Origin: Escherichia coli
GTDB taxonomy: Bacteria > Pseudomonadota > Gammaproteobacteria > Enterobacterales > Enterobacteriaceae
Assembly (NCBI RefSeq): GCF_002854065.1
Contig: NZ_CP024147.1
Length of the DNA stretch: 64,000 nucleotides
Direction: 5' to 3' (one strand)
Of the stretch, positions 1,631-57,250 are shown in pieces. Position 1 is the first letter of the stretch; each line of letters begins with the position of its first letter. The translations under genes and the position numbers were made by a program. The notes beneath the pieces are model-generated. The model was not told the origin of the DNA, made no database searches, and was given only the letters and a program-made list of their open reading frames with translations.

Positions 1631-2471
1631 ATGCTTCTGTAATCGGCTGACGCTGCTCGCCATCGCGCACGGCGGCGTACAGCCGGCTCCACAAGCCTTC
1701 GCCCAGGGTTTTTGTCACCACCAGATCCTGGCGCTCAAAACTCTCTACTACCCAATGTGGTAGCGCGGCAATACCCATCCGCGCGGCAACCATCTGAATC
1801 AACAATAAGGTGTTATCGACGCTTTTCAGTGACGGGCTGACGCCTGCCGGCTGAAGAAAATGCCGCCAGACATCCAGTCGGCTACGCTGCACCGGATAAA
1901 TCAACAGCGTCTCGCTGGCGAGATCTTCCGGTGTAATACGCGTTTTTGCCGCCAGTGGATGGTCAGGTGCTAACACCAGGCGTACTTCATAATCGAACAT
2001 CGGCGAATAATGCAGGCCACTGCGCGGCAGGATATCGGAGGTCATCACCAGATCCAGCTCGCCCTGTTGCAACGCGGGCTGCGGGTCAAACGTCACGCCC
2101 GATTTAAAATCCATCTCTACCTGCGGCCAGTTCTTATGGAAATTTTCTAACGCGGGTGTCAGCCACTGAATACAGCTATGGCACTCAATGGCAATGCGCA
2201 GACGCGTCTGCTGCGGTTCATTGCAGGCTTGCAGTGCCTGGCTGATTTGCGGCAGCACCTGGTTTGCCAGTTGCAACAGGATTTCTCCCTGCGGTGTAAA
2301 GCGTAGCGGCTGGCTCTTACGCACAAATAGCCGGAAGCCAAGGCGTTGTTCCAGATCGCTAAACTGGTGAGACAGGGCGGATTGCGTCTGATGCAACGTC
2401 GCCGCAGCGGCTGCGAGAGAGCCGCAGTTCCGCAACGCTTGTAGCGTTTTCAGGTGTTTTACTTCGATCAT
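1518..2471 (-). CDS. metR: LysR-family transcriptional activator MetR
   Basis: 317-aa ORF with N-terminal HTH ([36 protein letters not shown]); divergent from metE. Confidence 0.92.
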
Positions 2472-2706
2472 GAAAGTCCTTCACTTCGGCATGAATAATT
2501 TGCGCTTGAGGAATATACAGTAACCGCCAATTATGGATGTGTAAACATCTGGACGGCTAAAATCCTTCGTCTTTTAAATTTATGGTGCGTTGGCTGCGTT
2601 TCTCCACCCCGGTCACTTACTTCAGTAAGCTCCCGGGGATGAATAAACTTGCCGCCTTCCCTAAATTCAAAATCCATAGGATTTACATATAATTAGAGGA
2701 AGAAAA
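2472..2706. promoter_or_regulatory. metR-metE divergent control region with degenerate tandem MetJ boxes (about 2545..2572) and expected MetR site
   Basis: Intergenic between divergent metR and metE; acatctggacggctaaaatccttcgtct resembles repeated AGACGTCT met boxes. Confidence 0.45.
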
Positions 2707-4968
2707 ATGACAATATTGAATCACACCCTCGGTTTCCCTCGCGTTGGCCTGCGTCGCGAGCTGAAAAAAGCGCAAGAGAGTTATTGGGCGGGGAACTCCA
2801 CGCGTGAAGAACTGCTGGCGGTAGGGCGTGAATTGCGTGCTCGTCACTGGGATCAACAAAAGCAAGCGGGTATCGACCTGCTGCCGGTGGGCGATTTTGC
2901 CTGGTACGATCATGTACTGACCACCAGTCTGCTGCTGGGTAACGTTCCAGCGCGTCATCAGAACAAAGATGGTTCGGTAGATATCGACACCCTGTTCCGT
3001 ATTGGTCGTGGACGTGCGCCGACTGGCGAACCTGCGGCGGCAGCGGAAATGACCAAATGGTTTAACACCAACTATCACTACATGGTGCCGGAGTTCGTTA
3101 AGGGCCAACAGTTCAAACTGACCTGGACGCAGCTGCTGGAGGAAGTGGACGAGGCGCTGGCGCTGGGCCACAAGGTGAAACCTGTGCTGCTGGGGCCGGT
3201 TACCTGGCTGTGGCTGGGGAAAGTGAAAGGTGAACAGTTTGATCGCCTGAGCCTGCTGAACGACATTCTGCCGGTTTATCAGCAAGTGCTGGCAGAACTG
3301 GCGAAACGCGGTATTGAGTGGGTACAGATCGACGAACCCGCGCTGGTACTGGAACTACCACAGGCGTGGCTGGACGCATACAAACCCGCTTACGACGCGC
3401 TCCAGGGACAGGTGAAACTGCTGCTGACCACCTATTTTGAAGGCGTAACGCCAAATCTCGACACGATTACTGCGCTGCCTGTTCAGGGGCTGCATGTGGA
3501 CCTTGTACATGGTAAAGATGACGTTGTTGAACTGCACAAGCGCCTGCCTTCTGACTGGCTGCTGTCTGCGGGTCTGATCAATGGTCGTAACGTCTGGCGC
3601 GCCGATCTTACTGAGAAATATGCGCAAATTAAGGACATTGTCGGCAAACGTGATTTGTGGGTGGCATCTTCCTGCTCGTTGCTGCACAGCCCCATCGACC
3701 TGAGCGTGGAAACGCGTCTTGATGCAGAAGTGAAAAGCTGGTTTGCCTTCGCCCTACAAAAATGCCATGAACTGGCACTGCTGCGCGATGCGCTGAACAG
3801 TGGTGACACGGCAGCTCTGGCAGAGTGGAGCGCCCCAATTCAGGCGCGTCGTCACTCTACTCGTGTACATAATCCGGCGGTAGAAAAGCGTCTGGCGGCG
3901 ATCACCGCCCAGGACAGCCAGCGTGCGAATGTCTATGAAGTGCGTGCTGAAGCCCAGCGTGCGCGTTTTAAACTGCCAGCGTGGCCGACCACCACGATTG
4001 GTTCCTTCCCGCAAACCACGGAAATTCGTACCCTGCGTCTGGATTTCAAAAAGGGCAATCTCGACGCCAATAACTACCGCACGGGCATTGCGGAACATAT
4101 CAGGCAGGCCATTGTTGAACAGGAACGTTTGGGACTGGATGTGCTGGTACATGGCGAGGCCGAGCGTAATGACATGGTGGAATACTTTGGCGAGCACCTC
4201 GACGGGTTTGTCTTTACGCAAAACGGTTGGGTACAGAGCTACGGTTCCCGCTGCGTGAAGCCACCGATTGTTATTGGTGACGTTAGTCGCCCGGCACCGA
4301 TTACCGTGGAGTGGGCGAAGTATGCGCAATCGCTGACTGATAAACCGGTGAAAGGGATGCTGACTGGCCCGGTGACCATTCTCTGCTGGTCGTTCCCGCG
4401 TGAAGATGTCAGCCGTGAAACTATCGCCAAACAAATTGCGCTGGCGCTGCGTGATGAAGTGGCGGACCTGGAAGCCGCAGGAATTGGCATCATCCAGATT
4501 GATGAACCGGCGCTGCGCGAAGGTTTACCGCTGCGTCGTAGCGACTGGGATGCATATCTCCAGTGGGGCGTGGAGGCCTTCCGTATCAACGCCGCCGTGG
4601 CGAAAGATGACACACAAATCCACACTCACATGTGTTATTGCGAGTTCAACGACATCATGGATTCGATTGCGGCACTGGATGCAGACGTCATCACCATCGA
4701 AACCTCGCGTTCCGACATGGAGTTGCTGGAGTCGTTTGAAGAGTTTGATTATCCGAATGAAATCGGTCCAGGCGTCTATGACATTCACTCGCCAAACGTA
4801 CCGAGCGTAGAATGGATTGAAGCCTTGCTGAAGAAAGCGGCAAAACGCATTCCGGCAGAGCGCCTGTGGGTCAACCCGGACTGTGGCCTGAAAACGCGCG
4901 GCTGGCCAGAAACCCGCGCGGCACTGGCGAACATGGTGCAGGCGGCGCAGAACTTGCGTCGGGGGTAA
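2707..4968 (+). CDS. metE: Cobalamin-independent methionine synthase
   Basis: 753-aa ORF; SD aggaag upstream; position and size match MetE. Confidence 0.95.
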
Positions 4969-22609: not shown

Positions 22610-24061
22610 ATGCATTTTCGCGCCATTACCCGAATCGTTGGACTACTGGTCATCTTATTTTCAGGGACCATGATTATCCCTGGGCTGGTAGCACTCATCT
22701 ACCGGGATGGAGCGGGCCGCGCTTTTACCCAGACCTTTTTTGTCGCCCTCGCCATTGGCTCTATGCTGTGGTGGCCGAACCGCAAAGAGAAGGGCGAACT
22801 GAAATCCCGTGAGGGGTTTCTGATAGTGGTGCTGTTCTGGACCGTGCTGGGTAGTGTCGGTGCGCTCCCTTTTATCTTCTCGGAAAGCCCGAACCTCACG
22901 ATTACCGATGCGTTTTTTGAATCTTTCTCTGGCCTGACCACCACCGGGGCCACTACGCTGGTGGGGCTGGATTCGCTCCCTCATGCCATCCTCTTTTATC
23001 GCCAGATGCTGCAATGGTTTGGCGGGATGGGGATCATCGTGTTAGCGGTTGCGATACTGCCTATCCTCGGCGTGGGTGGGATGCAGCTCTATCGCGCAGA
23101 AATGCCCGGCCCGCTGAAAGATAACAAAATGCGCCCGCGAATTGCGGAAACGGCGAAAACCCTGTGGTTGATTTATGTCTTGCTGACCGTCGCCTGTGCG
23201 CTGGCGTTGTGGTTTGCCGGAATGGATGCCTTTGATGCCATCGGCCATAGCTTTGCGACTATCGCTATTGGCGGCTTCTCGACACATGATGCCAGTATCG
23301 GTTATTTCGACAGCCCGACTATTAACACTATCATTGCTATCTTCCTGCTGATCTCCGGCTGTAACTATGGTCTGCACTTTTCACTGTTAAGTGGGCGTAG
23401 TCTGAAGGTTTATTGGCGCGATCCGGAATTTCGCATGTTTATCGGCGTACAGTTTACGCTGGTGGTTATTTGTACCCTCGTACTGTGGTTTCATAATGTC
23501 TACAGTTCGGCGCTGATGACAATTAACCAGGCGTTTTTCCAGGTGGTATCGATGGCGACAACCGCCGGGTTTACGACAGACAGCATTGCCCGCTGGCCGC
23601 TCTTTTTGCCGGTACTGCTTTTATGTTCAGCTTTTATCGGCGGTTGTGCCGGGTCAACGGGCGGTGGCCTGAAAGTGATCCGCATCCTGCTGCTGTTTAA
23701 GCAGGGGAACCGTGAGCTGAAACGACTGGTGCATCCGAACGCCGTCTATAGCATTAAGCTGGGGAATCGCGCACTGCCGGAACGTATCCTCGAAGCCGTC
23801 TGGGGATTTTTCTCCGCCTATGCATTGGTGTTTATTGTCAGTATGCTGGCGATTATCGCCACGGGCGTGGATGACTTTTCTGCCTTTGCCTCGGTTGTTG
23901 CGACATTGAATAACCTGGGGCCAGGGCTTGGCGTGGTTGCTGATAACTTTACCAGCATGAACCCGGTGGCTAAATGGATCCTGATTGCCAACATGCTGTT
24001 TGGCCGCCTCGAGGTCTTTACATTGCTGGTGCTCTTTACCCCGACTTTCTGGCGTGAATGA
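22610..24061 (+). CDS. trkH: Potassium uptake protein TrkH
   Basis: 483-aa polytopic membrane ORF. Confidence 0.9.
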   Translation: MHFRAITRIVGLLVILFSGTMIIPGLVALIYRDGAGRAFTQTFFVALAIGSMLWWPNRKEKGELKSREGFLIVVLFWTVLGSVGALPFIFSESPNLTITDAFFESFSGLTTTGATTLVGLDSLPHAILFYRQMLQWFGGMGIIVLAVAILPILGVGGMQLYRAEMPGPLKDNKMRPRIAETAKTLWLIYVLLTVACALALWFAGMDAFDAIGHSFATIAIGGFSTHDASIGYFDSPTINTIIAIFLLISGCNYGLHFSLLSGRSLKVYWRDPEFRMFIGVQFTLVVICTLVLWFHNVYSSALMTINQAFFQVVSMATTAGFTTDSIARWPLFLPVLLLCSAFIGGCAGSTGGGLKVIRILLLFKQGNRELKRLVHPNAVYSIKLGNRALPERILEAVWGFFSAYALVFIVSMLAIIATGVDDFSAFASVVATLNNLGPGLGVVADNFTSMNPVAKWILIANMLFGRLEVFTLLVLFTPTFWRE

Positions 24062-24995: not shown

Positions 24996-26537
<1,542 letters not shown>

Positions 26538-29886: not shown

Positions 29887-29978
29887 ACAACGCCGAAGCT
29901 GTTTTGGCGGATGAGAGAAGATTTTCAGCCTGATACAGATTAAATCAGAACGCAGAAGCGGTCTGATAAAACAGAATT

Positions 29979-30098
29979 TGCCTGGCGGCCTTAGCGCGGT
30001 GGTCCCACCTGACCCCATGCCGAACTCAGAAGTGAAACGCCGTAGCGCCGATGGTAGTGTGGGGTCTCCCCATGCGAGAGTAGGGAACTGCCAGGCAT
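29979..30098 (+). rRNA. rrfA: 5S ribosomal RNA
   Basis: tgcctggcggccttagcgcggtgg...gggaactgccaggcat; 120 nt. Confidence 0.95.
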
Positions 30099-30108
30099 CA
30101 AATTAAGC

Positions 30109-30137
30109 GAAAGGCCATCCGTCAGGATGGCCTTTTT
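30109..30137 (+). terminator. rrnA rho-independent terminator
   Basis: Hairpin aaaggccatccgtcaggatggcc followed by ttttt. Confidence 0.7.
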
Positions 30138-31708: not shown

Positions 31709-32695
31709 ATGAACAACAGCGCTTTTACTTTCCAGACACTACACCCGGATACCATCATGGACGCTCTGTTTGAGCAAGGGATCCGGGTGGATTCCGGTCT
31801 TACCCCGCTTAACAGCTATGAAAACCGTGTCTATCAATTTCAGGACGAAGATCGTCGACGTTTTGTCGTCAAATTTTATCGCCCTGAACGTTGGACAGCC
31901 GATCAAATCCTCGAAGAACATCAATTTGCGTTGCAGCTGGTAAATGATGAAGTTCCGGTCGCAGCACCTGTGGCTTTTAACGGTCAGACTTTATTGAATC
32001 ATCAGGGATTTTATTTCGCTGTTTTTCCAAGCGTCGGTGGTCGCCAGTTCGAAGCTGATAATATCGATCAGATGGAAGCGGTTGGGCGTTATTTAGGGCG
32101 TATGCACCAGACGGGGCGCAAACAGCTTTTTATCCATCGCCCGACCATCGGTCTGAATGAATATCTCATTGAGCCACGCAAGCTGTTTGAGGACGCTACA
32201 CTGATACCTTCCGGGTTGAAAGCGGCATTCCTGAAAGCGACAGATGAGCTGATCGCCGCCGTTACAGCACACTGGCGGGAAGATTTCACCGTTCTGCGGC
32301 TACATGGAGACTGCCACGCCGGGAATATTCTCTGGCGCGATGGTCCAATGTTTGTTGATCTGGATGATGCACGTAATGGTCCAGCTATTCAGGATTTGTG
32401 GATGTTGCTCAATGGCGATAAAGCCGAGCAGCGGATGCAACTGGAAACTATTATTGAAGCTTATGAAGAATTTAGCGAGTTCGACACCGCTGAAATCGGA
32501 CTGATTGAACCTTTACGCGCCATGCGTTTGGTTTATTATCTTGCCTGGCTAATGCGGCGTTGGGCTGATCCCGCGTTCCCGAAAAATTTCCCGTGGTTAA
32601 CCGGGGAAGATTACTGGCTACGACAGACGGCGACTTTTATAGAACAGGCAAAAGTTCTACAAGAACCCCCTTTGCAATTAACACCTATGTATTAA
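31709..32695 (+). CDS. srkA: Stress-response Ser/Thr kinase SrkA (RdoA/YihE)
   Basis: 328-aa ORF with kinase-like HGDCHAGNILW motif, immediately upstream of dsbA. Confidence 0.85.
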   Translation: MNNSAFTFQTLHPDTIMDALFEQGIRVDSGLTPLNSYENRVYQFQDEDRRRFVVKFYRPERWTADQILEEHQFALQLVNDEVPVAAPVAFNGQTLLNHQGFYFAVFPSVGGRQFEADNIDQMEAVGRYLGRMHQTGRKQLFIHRPTIGLNEYLIEPRKLFEDATLIPSGLKAAFLKATDELIAAVTAHWREDFTVLRLHGDCHAGNILWRDGPMFVDLDDARNGPAIQDLWMLLNGDKAEQRMQLETIIEAYEEFSEFDTAEIGLIEPLRAMRLVYYLAWLMRRWADPAFPKNFPWLTGEDYWLRQTATFIEQAKVLQEPPLQLTPMY

Positions 32696-32711: not shown

Positions 32712-33338
32712 ATGAAAAAGATTTGGCTGGCGCTGGCTGGTTTAGTTTTAGCGTTTAGCGCATCGGCGGCGCAGTATGAAGATGGTAAACAGTACACTAC
32801 CCTGGAAAAACCGGTAGCTGGCGCGCCGCAAGTGCTGGAGTTTTTCTCTTTCTTCTGCCCGCACTGCTATCAGTTTGAAGAAGTTCTGCATATTTCTGAT
32901 AATGTGAAGAAAAAACTGCCGGAAGGCGTGAAGATGACTAAATACCACGTCAACTTCATGGGTGGTGACCTGGGCAAAGATCTGACTCAGGCATGGGCTG
33001 TGGCGATGGCGCTGGGCGTGGAAGACAAAGTGACTGTTCCGCTGTTTGAAGGCGTACAGAAAACCCAGACCATTCGTTCTGCTTCTGATATCCGCGATGT
33101 ATTTATCAACGCAGGTATTAAAGGTGAAGAGTACGACGCGGCGTGGAACAGCTTCGTGGTGAAATCTCTGGTCGCTCAGCAGGAAAAAGCTGCAGCTGAC
33201 GTGCAATTGCGTGGTGTTCCGGCGATGTTTGTTAACGGTAAATATCAGCTGAATCCGCAGGGTATGGATACCAGCAATATGGATGTTTTTGTTCAGCAGT
33301 ATGCTGATACAGTGAAATATCTGTCCGAGAAAAAATAA
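32712..33338 (+). CDS. dsbA: Periplasmic thiol:disulfide oxidoreductase DsbA
   Basis: 208-aa ORF with signal peptide and CPHC active site ([13 protein letters not shown]). Confidence 0.95.
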
Positions 33339-33356
33339 TTCAATGTAAATTACATA

Positions 33357-33386
33357 AAGCCCGTGAATATTCACGGGCTTTTTTTA
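33357..33386 (+). terminator. dsbA rho-independent terminator
   Basis: Hairpin aaagcccgtgaatattcacgggcttt followed by T-run. Confidence 0.65.
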
Positions 33387-33451
33387 TTATTTAATAGGTG
33401 ATGCTGCCAACTTACTGATTTAGTGTATGATGGTGTTTTTGAGGTGCTCCA

Positions 33452-33727
33452 GTGGCTTCTGTTTCTATCAGCTGTCCCTCCTGTTCAGCTACTGACGGGG
33501 TGGTGCGTAACGGCAAAAGCACTGCCGGACATCAGCGCTATCTCTGCTCTCACTGCCGTAAAACATGGCAACTGCAGTTCACTTACACCGCTTCTCAACC
33601 CGGTACGCACCAGAAAATCATTGATATGGCCATGAATGGCGTTGGATGCCGGGCAACCGCCCGCATTATGGGCGTTGGCCTCAACACGATTTTCCGCCAT
33701 TTAAAAAACTCAGGCCGCAGTCGGTAA
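33452..33727 (+). CDS. insA: IS1 InsA
   Basis: 91-aa [43 protein letters not shown]. Confidence 0.9.
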
Positions 33728-34149
33728 CCTCGCGCATACAGCCGGGCAGTGACGTCATCGTCTGCGCGGAAATGGACGAACAGTGGGGATACGTCGGGGC
33801 TAAATCGCGCCAGCGCTGGCTGTTTTACGCGTATGACAGGCTCCGGAAGACGGTTGTTGCGCACGTATTCGGTGAACGCACTATGGCGACGCTGGGGCGT
33901 CTTATGAGCCTGCTGTCACCCTTTGACGTGGTGATATGGATGACGGATGGCTGGCCGCTGTATGAATCCCGCCTGAAGGGAAAGCTGCACGTAATCAGCA
34001 AGCGATATACGCAGCGAATTGAGCGGCATAACCTGAATCTGAGGCAGCACCTGGCACGGCTGGGACGGAAGTCGCTGTCGTTCTCAAAATCGGTGGAGCT
34101 GCATGACAAAGTCATCGGGCATTATCTGAACATAAAACACTATCAATAA
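33646..34149 (+). CDS. insB: IS1 InsB reading frame (transposase made as InsAB' by -1 frameshift)
   Basis: 167-aa ORF overlapping the insA 3' end; ttaaaaaactc slippery motif in the overlap. Confidence 0.85.
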
Positions 34150-34164
34150 GTTGGAGTCATTACC

Positions 34165-34665
34165 GAGTTTTTCTCTTTCTTCTGCCCACACTGCTATCAG
34201 TTTGAAGAAGTTCTGCATATTTCTGATAATGTGAAGAAAAAACTGCCGGAAGGCGTGAAGATGACTAAATACCACGTCAACTTCATGGGTGGTGACCTGG
34301 GCAAAGATCTGACTCAGGCATGGGCTGTGGCGATGGCGCTGGGCGTGGAAGACAAAGTGACTGTTCCGCTGTTTGAAGGCGTACAGAAAACCCAGACCAT
34401 TCGTTCTGCTTCTGATATCCGCGATGTATTTATCAACGCAGGTATTAAAGGTGAAGAGTACGACGCGGCGTGGAACAGCTTCGTGGTGAAATCTCTGGTC
34501 GCTCAGCAGGAAAAAGCTGCAGCTGACGTGCAATTGCGTGGTGTTCCGGCGATGTTTGTTAACGGTAAATATCAGCTGAATCCGCAGGGTATGGATACCA
34601 GCAATATGGATGTTTTTGTTCAGCAGTATGCTGATACAGTGAAATATCTGTCCGAGAAAAAATAA
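34165..34665 (+). pseudogene. Duplicated dsbA 3' fragment (from codon E43, no start codon or signal peptide)
   Basis: 34165..34723 repeats dsbA 32838..33396; translation identical to DsbA residues 43 onward; one synonymous change ccg to cca in the CPHC proline codon. Confidence 0.8.
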
Positions 34666-34675
34666 TTCAATGTAA

Positions 34676-34705
34676 ATTACATAAAGCCCGTGAATATTCA
34701 CGGGC
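34676..34705 (+). terminator. Second copy of the dsbA terminator
   Basis: Same hairpin as 33357..33386, within the 559-bp repeat. Confidence 0.6.
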
Positions 34706-34819
34706 TTTTTTTATTATTTAATAAATATAAATACATTCTGATAATGCATCCTGCCGCTGGACATTATTTCAGCATAAGTGGATATTCAAAGTTTTGCTGT
34801 TTTATCAGGGAATATTTAT

Positions 34820-36250
34820 ATGATACGTAAGTCAGCTACAGGTGTTATTGTTGCGTTAGCCGTAATCTGGGGTGGTGGCACATGGTACACAGGTACGCAA
34901 ATTCAGCCTGGTGTCGAAAAATTTATTAAAGATTTTAACGATGCTAAAAAGAAAGGTGAACATGCCTACGATATGACGTTAAGTTATCAAAATTTTGACA
35001 AAGGCTTTTTTAATTCCCGTTTTCAAATGCAAATGACATTCGATAACGGTGCACCTGATCTCAATATCAAGCCAGGCCAGAAAGTTGTATTTGATGTGGA
35101 TGTTGAGCACGGTCCGTTGCCCATCACAATGTTAATGCATGGTAATGTCATCCCAGCACTGGCAGCGGCAAAAGTGAACTTAGTGAATAATGAACTGACA
35201 CAACCGCTATTTATCGCCGCGAAAAATAAATCGCCCGTGGAAGCGACATTGCGATTCGCGTTTGGTGGCTCATTCTCCACGACATTAGATGTTGCCCCTG
35301 CAGAGTATGGAAAATTCTCTTTTGGTGAAGGCCAGTTTACTTTTAATGGTGATGGTAGTTCATTGTCTAACCTGGATATTGAAGGCAAAGTCGAAGATAT
35401 TGTTCTGCAATTTTCACCAATGAACAAAGTAACGGCAAAAAGTTTTACCATTGATTCTCTGGCGCGATTAGAAGAAAAGAAATTTCCGGTTGGTGAAAGC
35501 GAGTCGAAATTTAATCAGATTAACATTATCAATCACGGGGAAGACGTTGCCCAAATCGATGCTTTCGTTGCAAAAACCAGGCTGGATCGCGTTAAAGACA
35601 AAGATTATATCAATGTCAATCTGACCTACGAACTTGATAAGTTAACAAAAGGGAATCAGCAACTCGGTAGTGGTGAGTGGTCATTGATTGCTGAATCTAT
35701 TGATCCCTCAGCAGTGCGCCAATTTATCATCCAGTATAACATTGCGATGCAGAAGCAGCTTGCTGCACACCCTGAATTAGCAAACGATGAAGTTGCTCTG
35801 CAAGAAGTGAATGCTGCATTGTTCAAAGAGTATTTACCGTTATTACAACAAAGTGAGCCGACCATTAAACAACCGGTAAGATGGAAGAACGCACTCGGCG
35901 AACTAAATGCCAATCTGGATATCAGTATTGCCGACCCAGCCAAATCTTCATCATCCACAAACAAAGATATCAAATCGCTCAATTTTGATGTGAAGTTACC
36001 GCTTAATGTCGTCACAGAAACCGCAAAACAGCTTAATTTATCTGAAGGAATGGATGCGGAAAAAGCGCAAAAGCAGGCTGATAAACAAATCAGCGGGATG
36101 ATGACATTAGGTCAGATGTTTCAGTTAATCACGATTGACAACAATACCGCCTCGCTGCAGCTGCGTTATACACCGGGTAAAGTTGTTTTTAACGGACAGG
36201 AGATGAGCGAAGAAGAATTTATGTCTCGTGCCGGACGTTTTGTTCATTAA
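34820..36250 (+). CDS. yihF: DUF945-family putative exported protein YihF
   Basis: ORF 34778..36250 trimmed to MIRKSATGVIVALAVIWGGG (signal-like); 476 aa. Confidence 0.8.
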   Translation: MIRKSATGVIVALAVIWGGGTWYTGTQIQPGVEKFIKDFNDAKKKGEHAYDMTLSYQNFDKGFFNSRFQMQMTFDNGAPDLNIKPGQKVVFDVDVEHGPLPITMLMHGNVIPALAAAKVNLVNNELTQPLFIAAKNKSPVEATLRFAFGGSFSTTLDVAPAEYGKFSFGEGQFTFNGDGSSLSNLDIEGKVEDIVLQFSPMNKVTAKSFTIDSLARLEEKKFPVGESESKFNQINIINHGEDVAQIDAFVAKTRLDRVKDKDYINVNLTYELDKLTKGNQQLGSGEWSLIAESIDPSAVRQFIIQYNIAMQKQLAAHPELANDEVALQEVNAALFKEYLPLLQQSEPTIKQPVRWKNALGELNANLDISIADPAKSSSSTNKDIKSLNFDVKLPLNVVTETAKQLNLSEGMDAEKAQKQADKQISGMMTLGQMFQLITIDNNTASLQLRYTPGKVVFNGQEMSEEEFMSRAGRFVH

Positions 36251-51550: not shown

Positions 51551-51605
51551 GGTGATGCTGCCAACTTACTGATTTAGTGTATGATGGTGTCTTTGAGGTG
51601 CTCCA

Positions 51606-51881
51606 GTGGCTTCTGTTTCTATCAGCTGTCCCTCCTGTTCAGCTACTGACGGGGTGGTGCGTAACGGCAAAAGCACTGCCGGACATCAGCGCTATCTCTG
51701 CTCTCACTGCCGTAAAACATGGCAACTGCAGTTCACTTACACCGCTTCTCAACCCGGTACGCACCAGAAAATCATTGATATGGCCATGAATGGCGTTGGA
51801 TGCCGGGCAACCGCCCGCATTATGGGCGTTGGCCTCAACACGATTTTCCGCCATTTAAAAAACTCAGGCCGCAGTCGGTAA
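51606..51881 (+). CDS. insA: IS1 InsA
   Basis: Protein identical to copy 1 InsA. Confidence 0.9.
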
Positions 51882-52303
51882 CCTCGCGCATACAGCCGGG
51901 CAGTGACGTCATCGTCTGCGCGGAAATGGACGAACAGTGGGGATACGTCGGGGCTAAATCGCGCCAGCGCTGGCTGTTTTACGCGTATGACAGGCTCCGG
52001 AAGACGGTTGTTGCGCACGTATTCGGTGAACGCACTATGGCGACGCTGGGGCGTCTTATGAGCCTGCTGTCACCCTTTGACGTGGTGATATGGATGACGG
52101 ATGGCTGGCCGCTGTATGAATCCCGCCTGAAGGGAAAGCTGCACGTAATCAGCAAGCGATATACGCAGCGAATTGAGCGGCATAACCTGAATCTGAGGCA
52201 GCACCTGGCACGGCTGGGACGGAAGTCGCTGTCGTTCTCAAAATCGGTGGAGCTGCATGACAAAGTCATCGGGCATTATCTGAACATAAAACACTATCAA
52301 TAA
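51800..52303 (+). CDS. insB: IS1 InsB reading frame
   Basis: Protein identical to copy 1 InsB. Confidence 0.85.
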
Positions 52304-52318
52304 GTTGGAGTCATTACC

Positions 52319-56841: not shown

Positions 56842-57250
56842 CTGATGGAGAGGGGCGGTGCTGCCTCTCTCATTCAGGTCATTTATATTAGTCCTTGGCT
56901 ATTTCGGTTATATTGAATAAGAACTCTATAAATTTTTATTCTTCGTTGGCTCCATACGTGTCTTGCTACATCACTGTTCAGGAGCATTTAAATATTATTT
57001 GTAGAGCTGTATGGCAATTATCGCAGATAATGCTTAATTCATCATCTTAGTTCATGTTTGAGCGATTTTTGATAGTCAAAACCCCCTCTGGTGCCATACT
57101 TTTCTCATAAATATTTTTAAAATCTATAGCTAACAAATATTATGCAAAGATAATGGGCTGGCATCATTGTCAGTATCATTCATTTACTGCTCTGGATGTT
57201 ATAAATAATTATGTTGTATGTTTGCTCTTAACTGTGGAAAGGAGGCTGTA

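Follow-up and report, generated by a model that had tools for sequence, protein, structure and literature searches.

The insertion and its flanking repeats

The locus considered here lies in a 64,000-nucleotide stretch of Escherichia coli DNA (assembly GCF_002854065.1, contig NZ_CP024147.1), referred to as a whole as the window. Between srkA and yihF it carries an intact dsbA gene, a copy of the insertion sequence (IS) IS1 and a second, truncated copy of dsbA. The IS1 element sits exactly between two direct copies of a 559-bp segment (32838-33396 and 34165-34723), which agree at 558 of 559 positions in a direct pairwise comparison. The sole mismatch, G at 32861 against A at 34188, changes CCG to CCA in the proline codon of the CPHC active site and is located 24 nt from the right end of IS1. 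The repeat extends by 0 bases on the left and 0 on the right, the two copies abut the ends of IS1 directly, and the IS1 termini are precise. Chance cannot account for a repeat of this length and identity (99.8%). A preliminary description of the window had reported this repeat as far longer than an IS1 target duplication, with at least one base differing between the copies; full alignment bears out both statements and sets the number of mismatches at exactly one.

The element itself is an IS1. It is intact and 768 bp long, is bounded by imperfect terminal inverted repeats of about 23 bp (left, IRL, GGTGATGCTGCCAACTTACTGAT; right, IRR, GGTAATGACTCCAACTTATTGAT), carries insA and insB frames that both match the NCBIfam IS1 transposase NF033558, and contains the A6C programmed -1 frameshift motif AAAAAAC. 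Yet its insertion is non-canonical. The 8-9-bp target duplication that normally flanks IS1 is absent, as the nine bases on the left (TATTTAATA) differ from those on the right (GAGTTTTTC), and a 559-bp duplication stands in its place. Both flanking 9-mers are AT-rich. Each joint also falls in a T- or AT-rich tract that directly follows a hairpin-like, GC-rich motif (32818-32847 and 33356-33396); on the codon-43 side this is a 7-bp-stem motif ending at 32838, and on the other side it is the genuine dsbA terminator. This resemblance could be due to chance or could reflect a structural cue shared in IS1 target choice.

The upstream dsbA is a full-length gene, scoring 415 bits against the NCBIfam DsbA equivalog model NF008198 (cut-off 279) over residues 1-208, in line with its preliminary description as intact. 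The repeat starts at the first base of codon 43, and the downstream copy accordingly begins there, lacks a start codon and ends past the terminator, as had been described. Translation likewise agrees with the earlier statement that the fragment shares the insB frame, from which it is separated by the insB TAA stop and five codons. That the fragment still encodes the CPHC active site holds only in part: the codons are present, but the first start codon past the insB stop is a GTG at 34231, downstream of CPHC. For this reason no ordinary translation product of the fragment would include the active site, and a CPHC-containing protein could be made from it only by read-through of the insB stop. 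The longest open reading frame (ORF) of the fragment, 144 aa starting at that GTG, reaches 274 bits, under the DsbA cut-off of 279, and is not a complete gene. An exact-protein look-up of this 144-residue ORF matched only frameshifted dsbA genes (68 aa + 144 aa) found in several public assemblies and metagenome scaffolds (e.g. GCA_001252015.1 CWUM01000308.1), which are unrelated to the IS1 structure; the junction of the IS1 right end with dsbA was not among its matches.

Because the repeat runs through the end of the gene, the dsbA terminator hairpin is present twice (33356-33381 and 34683-34708), the second time between IS1 and yihF. From 34724 onward the sequence is collinear with that of the closest relatives, and yihF therefore retains its native upstream region; the preliminary description had claimed both the duplicated terminator and the native yihF upstream sequence. 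The features of the locus are listed in Table 1.

Table 1. Features of the srkA-dsbA-yihF region, with positions numbered along the window
Feature	Position	Strand	Remarks
srkA	31709-32695		native, upstream of dsbA
dsbA, intact	32712-33338	+	208 aa, signal peptide, CPHC
Repeat copy 1	32838-33396	+	dsbA codon 43 through terminator to IS1 left junction; ends in TATTTAATA
dsbA intrinsic terminator, copy 1	33356-33388	+	11-bp stem plus T tract
IS1 (IS1B type)	33397-34164	+	768 bp; same orientation as dsbA
IRL of IS1	33397-33419	+	
insA	33452-33727	+	
insB frame	33646-34149	+	
A6C motif	33703-33709	+	
IRR of IS1	34142-34164	+	
Repeat copy 2	34165-34723	+	dsbA fragment, then terminator region; begins with GAGTTTTTC
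dsbA fragment	34165-34665	+	promoterless, start-less; codons 43-208 plus stop
Single copy-to-copy difference	34188	+	A, against G at 32861
dsbA terminator, copy 2	34683-34715	+	between IS1 and yihF
yihF (YdgA/DUF945 family)	34820-36250	+	native upstream sequence from 34724

A rearrangement on a short private branch

The complete E. coli genomes closest to the window are those of strain 100416, from human stool in Gambia, and CUWW06, from wastewater in Thailand; each is about 100% identical to it over the flanking 16 kb. Both have a single dsbA and are free of IS1 between srkA and yihF. Their dsbA is identical at the nucleotide level to the upstream dsbA of the window, and repeat copy 1 equals their single-copy sequence. 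The two repeat copies thus map to one single-copy site in these IS1-free relatives. No IS1 is present at the outer boundaries of the repeats, where the sequence to the left of 32838 and to the right of 34723 is native and collinear with both genomes. The element is the lineage's own IS1B, being identical to the IS1B of 100416 and 1 nt away from the second IS1 copy of the window.

Polarising differences against both relatives gives four changes private to the window outside the rrn operon: 34188 in repeat copy 2, 44867, 53095, and 51591 in the second IS1. The private branch is very short, with about 2 private single-nucleotide polymorphisms (SNPs) in roughly 57 kb of unique DNA, and sequence comparison places the dsbA rearrangement on it. 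At the private rate of 3.5e-5 per base, about 0.04 changes would be expected in the 1,118 bp of repeat; the one that is seen is mildly more than expected. A single extra change is compatible with relaxed constraint, with an error of repair synthesis during the duplication, or with a consensus error. The preliminary description had left open that the mismatch came from a different allele. That option is rejected: A at 34188 occurs in 0 of the 5,419 E. coli genomes carrying this part of dsbA and copy 1 is the allele of the two closest genomes, so that the A is a private derived mutation of the non-functional copy 2.

The same mismatch bears on whether the structure is real. It is conceivable that only one dsbA exists, with IS1 at one or two positions, in the strain or in a mixed culture, and that the assembler took a wrong turn in the IS1 repeat. 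Mis-assembly is notoriously common at IS copies and repeats, the structure is known from an assembly alone, and it is unique among all the collections searched. However, at the mismatch one copy has a base unique in E. coli, which requires that reads with both G and A exist. A chimeric path would in addition need two new IS1 insertions in the same orientation, 559 bp apart, in one culture. The window otherwise spans two IS1 copies and an rrn operon, with zero indels against CUWW06 in the 33 kb upstream and one in about 26.6 kb aligned downstream; against 100416 there are three indels, clustered at 29913-30124. Together this points to a finished assembly of long-read quality, and we consider an artefact quite unlikely.

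Other differences among the three genomes concern IS1 and the rrn operon. CUWW06 is without about 3.2 kb that is found in the window (56953-60201) and in 100416 and that holds a transposase gene, a partial hypothetical gene and yiiE; at the site of this loss it carries an extra IS1B in the opposite orientation (23195-23964 of its compared stretch). The loss is a deletion linked to IS1 and specific to that lineage, and it shows IS1B to be active in the clone. The second IS1 of the window, also IS1B (51551-52318), has the same orientation as the copy at dsbA and is common to 100416 and CUWW06. It is without target duplication (flanks ...GCGCCGAC and GCCGGGGTA...) and lies in the yih cluster, flanked by two truncated genes, one for a GntR-family regulator and one for an MFS transporter, with PfkB and DeoR gene remnants downstream. 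From its sequence context it looks like an IS1-associated adjacent deletion, and an older one because both relatives have it. A cluster of window-private differences from both relatives in the 16S/23S region of the rrn operon (25074-25088, 25469 and 28487) looks like gene conversion between rrn operons and not like point mutation. Downstream of the 5S gene, at 29899-30124, substitutions and three single-base indels separate the window from 100416 only, CUWW06 being identical to the window.

The two joints in other genomes

The two joints of the element differ in their occurrence elsewhere. The left joint (…TTATTTAATA|GGTGATG…) has one uninterrupted match in exactly one other E. coli genome, that of the unrelated strain VTB97585v (NZ_CP178711.1; chicken, South Africa). 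Here an IS1A lies between dsbA and yihF, inserted at the same phosphodiester and in the same orientation, and is flanked by a normal 9-bp duplication, TATTTAATA (2289-3074 of its stretch). It is an independent insertion, since this IS1A differs from the IS1 of the window at 8 nt and the dsbA of VTB97585v differs at 33215; the same differences led us to reject a VTB97585v-like donor as the source of the IS1-terminator junction. As the same phosphodiester was hit by an independent canonical IS1A, the left joint appears to have been chosen by the transposase and not by a random break. In strain 5444, used as a control, an IS1B in srkA has a 9-bp duplication, TTGAAGCTT. These comparisons indicate that the left joint of the window is a genuine, recurrent IS1 target and that only the right joint is abnormal, lying 559 bp upstream instead of 9 bp.

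The right joint, between the right end of IS1 and codon 43 of dsbA, is found in 0 of 5,426 complete E. coli genomes and in 0 of 100,044 GTDB species representatives (one genome per species), and is absent from the JGI metagenome contigs. With this junction missing from all three collections, no intermediate allele is known. A search of the literature for duplications involving dsbA, IS1 and Shigella returned nothing relevant.

Among the 5,426 genomes, 44 have an IS1 within or beside srkA-dsbA-yihF, many of them inside yihF, and in strain EC8 another IS1 lies a few tens of bp from the AT-rich tract that follows the dsbA terminator (33388-33396). A 70-bp sequence from the CPHC region of dsbA matched 5,419 records, one of them at two places, and two of the matches were on plasmid-labelled records; at least one other genome may thus have a second copy of this part of dsbA.

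The distribution of the joints also bears on an origin by recombination. In such a scheme one parental chromosome carries IS1 after the dsbA terminator and the other carries dsbA::IS1 at codon 43 in the same orientation, and a crossover inside IS1, for instance after transduction or conjugation within the clone, joins them. The product would be exactly the structure observed, and the terminator site is a recurrent IS1 target. However, neither parental allele with this IS1 type exists in the 5,426 genomes, and the codon-43 junction that the second parent would contribute is in none of the collections searched. No foreign SNP is present in copy 1, IS1 or either flank, all of which are alleles of the lineage itself; VTB97585v differs at 33215 and at 8 IS1 positions, and A at 34188 is not a known allele. 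Moreover, the scheme needs a dsbA-null parent, which would be deleterious. We regard this origin as improbable, a little more so than an assembly artefact.

A proposed single transposition with widely separated strand transfers

The explanation that we favour, with a probability of roughly 0.45, is a lineage-private insertion of IS1B whose 559-bp target duplication came from a single aberrant transposition, the two strand transfers having taken place 559 bp apart. It builds on the anatomy of the locus, the empty site in the relatives, a junction and a SNP private to the window, and a left junction that is a bona fide IS1 target; the single step is what we infer from them. In the proposed reaction, the 3'-OH of the IS1 right end would attack the top strand at dsbA codon 43, before GAGTTTTTC, and that of the left end would attack the bottom strand 559 bp downstream, just past the dsbA terminator, after TATTTAATA. 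The polarity would be that of the normal 5'-stagger, with the two sites lying far apart on looped target DNA. The free 3'-OH ends of the target would then prime strand-displacement synthesis over the 559-nt interval on both sides, and the whole interval would be duplicated, giving a-seg-IS1-seg-b (seg being the interval). The same aberration with the opposite polarity would produce an IS with a flanking deletion and without target duplication.

Several points weigh against this explanation. The structure is a single instance, known from assembled sequence. In those DDE transpososomes that have been characterised, a single bent target is captured and the two ends are joined to it in a concerted reaction. 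Widely separated strand transfers were not found for IS1 in the literature searched, where the reported IS1 duplications are of 8-9 bp. Finally, models with two steps predict an identical final sequence, and sequence alone does not separate them from a single step.

Many other routes can be discarded. Any route that begins with an IS1 fixed at either site (after the terminator or at codon 43), and hence carried by both sister chromosomes, would yield a-seg-IS1-seg-IS1-b or a-IS1-seg-IS1-seg-b; this holds for replicative transposition between sisters, for one-ended attack, for unequal exchange between IS copies and for reintegration of a circle of IS1 plus seg. Since the outer boundaries, where a second IS1 would be expected, are native, all of these are excluded. 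A tandem duplication by homologous recombination between two IS copies is rejected on the same evidence, there being no outer IS1 and no IS1 at the locus in the relatives. A tandem duplication followed by insertion of IS1 at its join would have left IS1 with its own 9-bp duplication, which it lacks. Template switching or microhomology-mediated joining is disfavoured by end points without microhomology, by two joints that are exact IS termini and by a left joint that coincides with a canonical target. As a whole, the locus speaks for joints made by transposase at either end and against standard IS-IS recombination. What remains is one aberrant transposition, two reactions in one cell cycle, or the inter-chromosome recombination within IS1 discussed above, all of which predict the same final sequence.

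A further suggestion is that the IS was captured at DNA breaks during an unrelated tandem duplication, the break-insertion hypothesis of Ngan et al. (2024). The topology at dsbA, a direct duplication centred on an IS without short target duplication (Dup-IS-Dup), matches that of the case behind this hypothesis. There is, however, no microhomology between the end points (TATTTAATA|AATATAAA against GTGCTG|GAGTTTTTC), either joint is an exact IS terminus, and the left end point is a canonical IS1 target to the base. DDE transposases, moreover, attack an intact phosphodiester and not a pre-existing end. Among the alternatives we hold break capture to be the least probable.

Two canonical IS1 reactions within one cell cycle deserve more weight. 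The first, on one sister chromosome only, would be an ordinary insertion at either site with its 9-bp duplication. In one variant this copy then moves by replicative transposition to the remaining site on the sister without IS1, and the sister cointegrate resolves to a-seg-IS1-seg-b plus a-IS1-b; in the other, a circle formed by adjacent deletion (IS1 plus seg) recombines with seg on that sister. The expected product matches the observed structure exactly, each junction is a precise IS1 end in an AT-rich site, such as IS1 preferentially targets (PMC5009759), and canonical IS1 insertion is proven for the left one. Local hopping of IS1 is documented, 5 of 233 new IS1A insertions having occurred within 1 kb of a resident copy where 0.5 were expected (Lee et al., PMC5009759), and for IS26 both circles of IS plus adjacent DNA and their reincorporation are known (PMC9602291). 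Against this, the scheme needs two rare events in the same generation and on different sisters. A first IS1 inherited by both sisters would lead to a second IS1 at an outer boundary, and there is none; nor does any relative have either single-site allele with this IS1B. From an IS1 insertion rate of about 1.2e-4 per genome per generation and the other figures of Lee et al. (PMC5009759), local hops of less than 1 kb can be estimated at about 4e-7 per IS1 copy per generation, and the combined event at about 1e-7 or less per new insertion. By this estimate, two steps in one generation would be far rarer than a single-step aberration that affected even 1e-4 of insertions. The two-step origin is accordingly judged unlikely, although it is the most credible of the alternatives.

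A single transposition with widely separated strand transfers thus remains our preferred account. Its generalisation, that the IS1 transposase, and perhaps DDE transposases at large, can join the two ends in vivo hundreds of bases apart in one event, is put forward more tentatively still.

Consequences for the locus and wider significance

For the cell the rearrangement is probably neutral, and inconsequential for the biology of dsbA and yihF. With its upstream region and promoter, coding sequence and terminator preserved, dsbA should be expressed normally and the cell should be DsbA+. The first terminator would shield IS1 from dsbA read-through. Transcription out of IS1 would pass into the dead fragment and end at the second terminator, leaving yihF insulated. 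RecA-type recombination between the 559-bp repeats would delete IS1 plus one repeat and restore the wild type exactly. The allele is thus expected to be inherently unstable, which fits the very short private branch.

An IS without a short target duplication is usually dismissed as a product of decay or of IS-IS recombination. The present case can be read base by base, and its base-resolved joints make the hypothesis of a wide stagger concrete and testable. If the hypothesis is true, transpositions of normal polarity would give Dup-IS-Dup structures and those of opposite polarity would give an IS plus a deletion without target duplications. An IS could then insert within a gene and yet not inactivate it, and homologous recombination could remove such an insertion precisely. 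For genome annotation, the locus illustrates that an IS which hits a coding sequence can leave an intact gene plus a pseudogene fragment, in an allele that is exactly revertible.

Comparison with known systems

Canonical IS1 insertions, such as the IS1A of VTB97585v and the srkA::IS1B of strain 5444, have the same 768-bp length and the same ends as the IS1 of the window. They differ from it in their 9-bp duplications (TATTTAATA and TTGAAGCTT, respectively), whereas in the window the right end is joined 559 bp upstream. Duplications by IS-IS recombination and the translocatable units of IS26 (PMC9602291) resemble the window in having an IS at the join of two copies; their products, however, keep an IS at the outer boundaries, and the window has none.

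For restriction-modification genes, the Kobayashi group described a class termed 'insertion with long target duplication' (Furuta et al., NAR 2010, PMC2853133). In that class, as in the window, the insert is flanked by direct repeats of well over 30 bp that both align to one site of a related genome; the repeat at dsbA, at 559 bp, exceeds this length, abuts the insert directly and corresponds to one site in 100416 and CUWW06. The class was defined for inserts consisting of restriction and modification genes without another mobile element, however, and the insert of the window is IS1 only, a transposase-encoding IS, so that it falls outside the class in the strict sense.

Long target duplications are also known from retroelements. 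HERV-K HML-2 proviruses are found with target duplications of 111-250 bp made by a retroviral DDE-type integrase (PMC5488345), and Dualen long interspersed nuclear elements (LINEs) with target duplications of median 900 bp (PMC9977147). In these elements, as is proposed for the window, the length of the duplication is the distance between the sites of strand cleavage or joining, and it is far above the norm for the element. They differ in being retroelements of eukaryotic hosts with a different enzymology, and LINE endonucleases are not of the DDE type.

The closest counterpart comes from Pseudomonas fluorescens SBW25, where an IS481 element separates the two copies of a duplication of 59,943 bp (Ngan et al., mBio 2024, PMC11708052). 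There, as in the window, a new IS lies exactly between direct copies of its target, with no short duplication and no further IS copy at the outer boundaries. The structure was lost by recombination between the copies, so that exact reversion has been demonstrated for this larger case (PMC11708052). Unlike the window, it is about 100 times larger, involves another IS family, arose under laboratory selection and has one end in a repetitive extragenic palindromic (REP) cluster; the event in the window is a natural and seemingly neutral one whose end points both resemble IS1 targets. Ngan et al. considered their IS-centred duplication 'not readily explained' and favoured break capture (PMC11708052); widely separated strand transfers, if they occur, would supply the missing mechanism. 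The IS481 structure and the 111-250-bp duplications of the retroviral integrase serve as precedents for the single step proposed here, and the restriction-modification class is a more distant match. The dsbA locus represents a natural, small IS1 case of a rare class in which an IS is centred in a duplication of its own target, new for IS1 as far as searched and of a kind already known.

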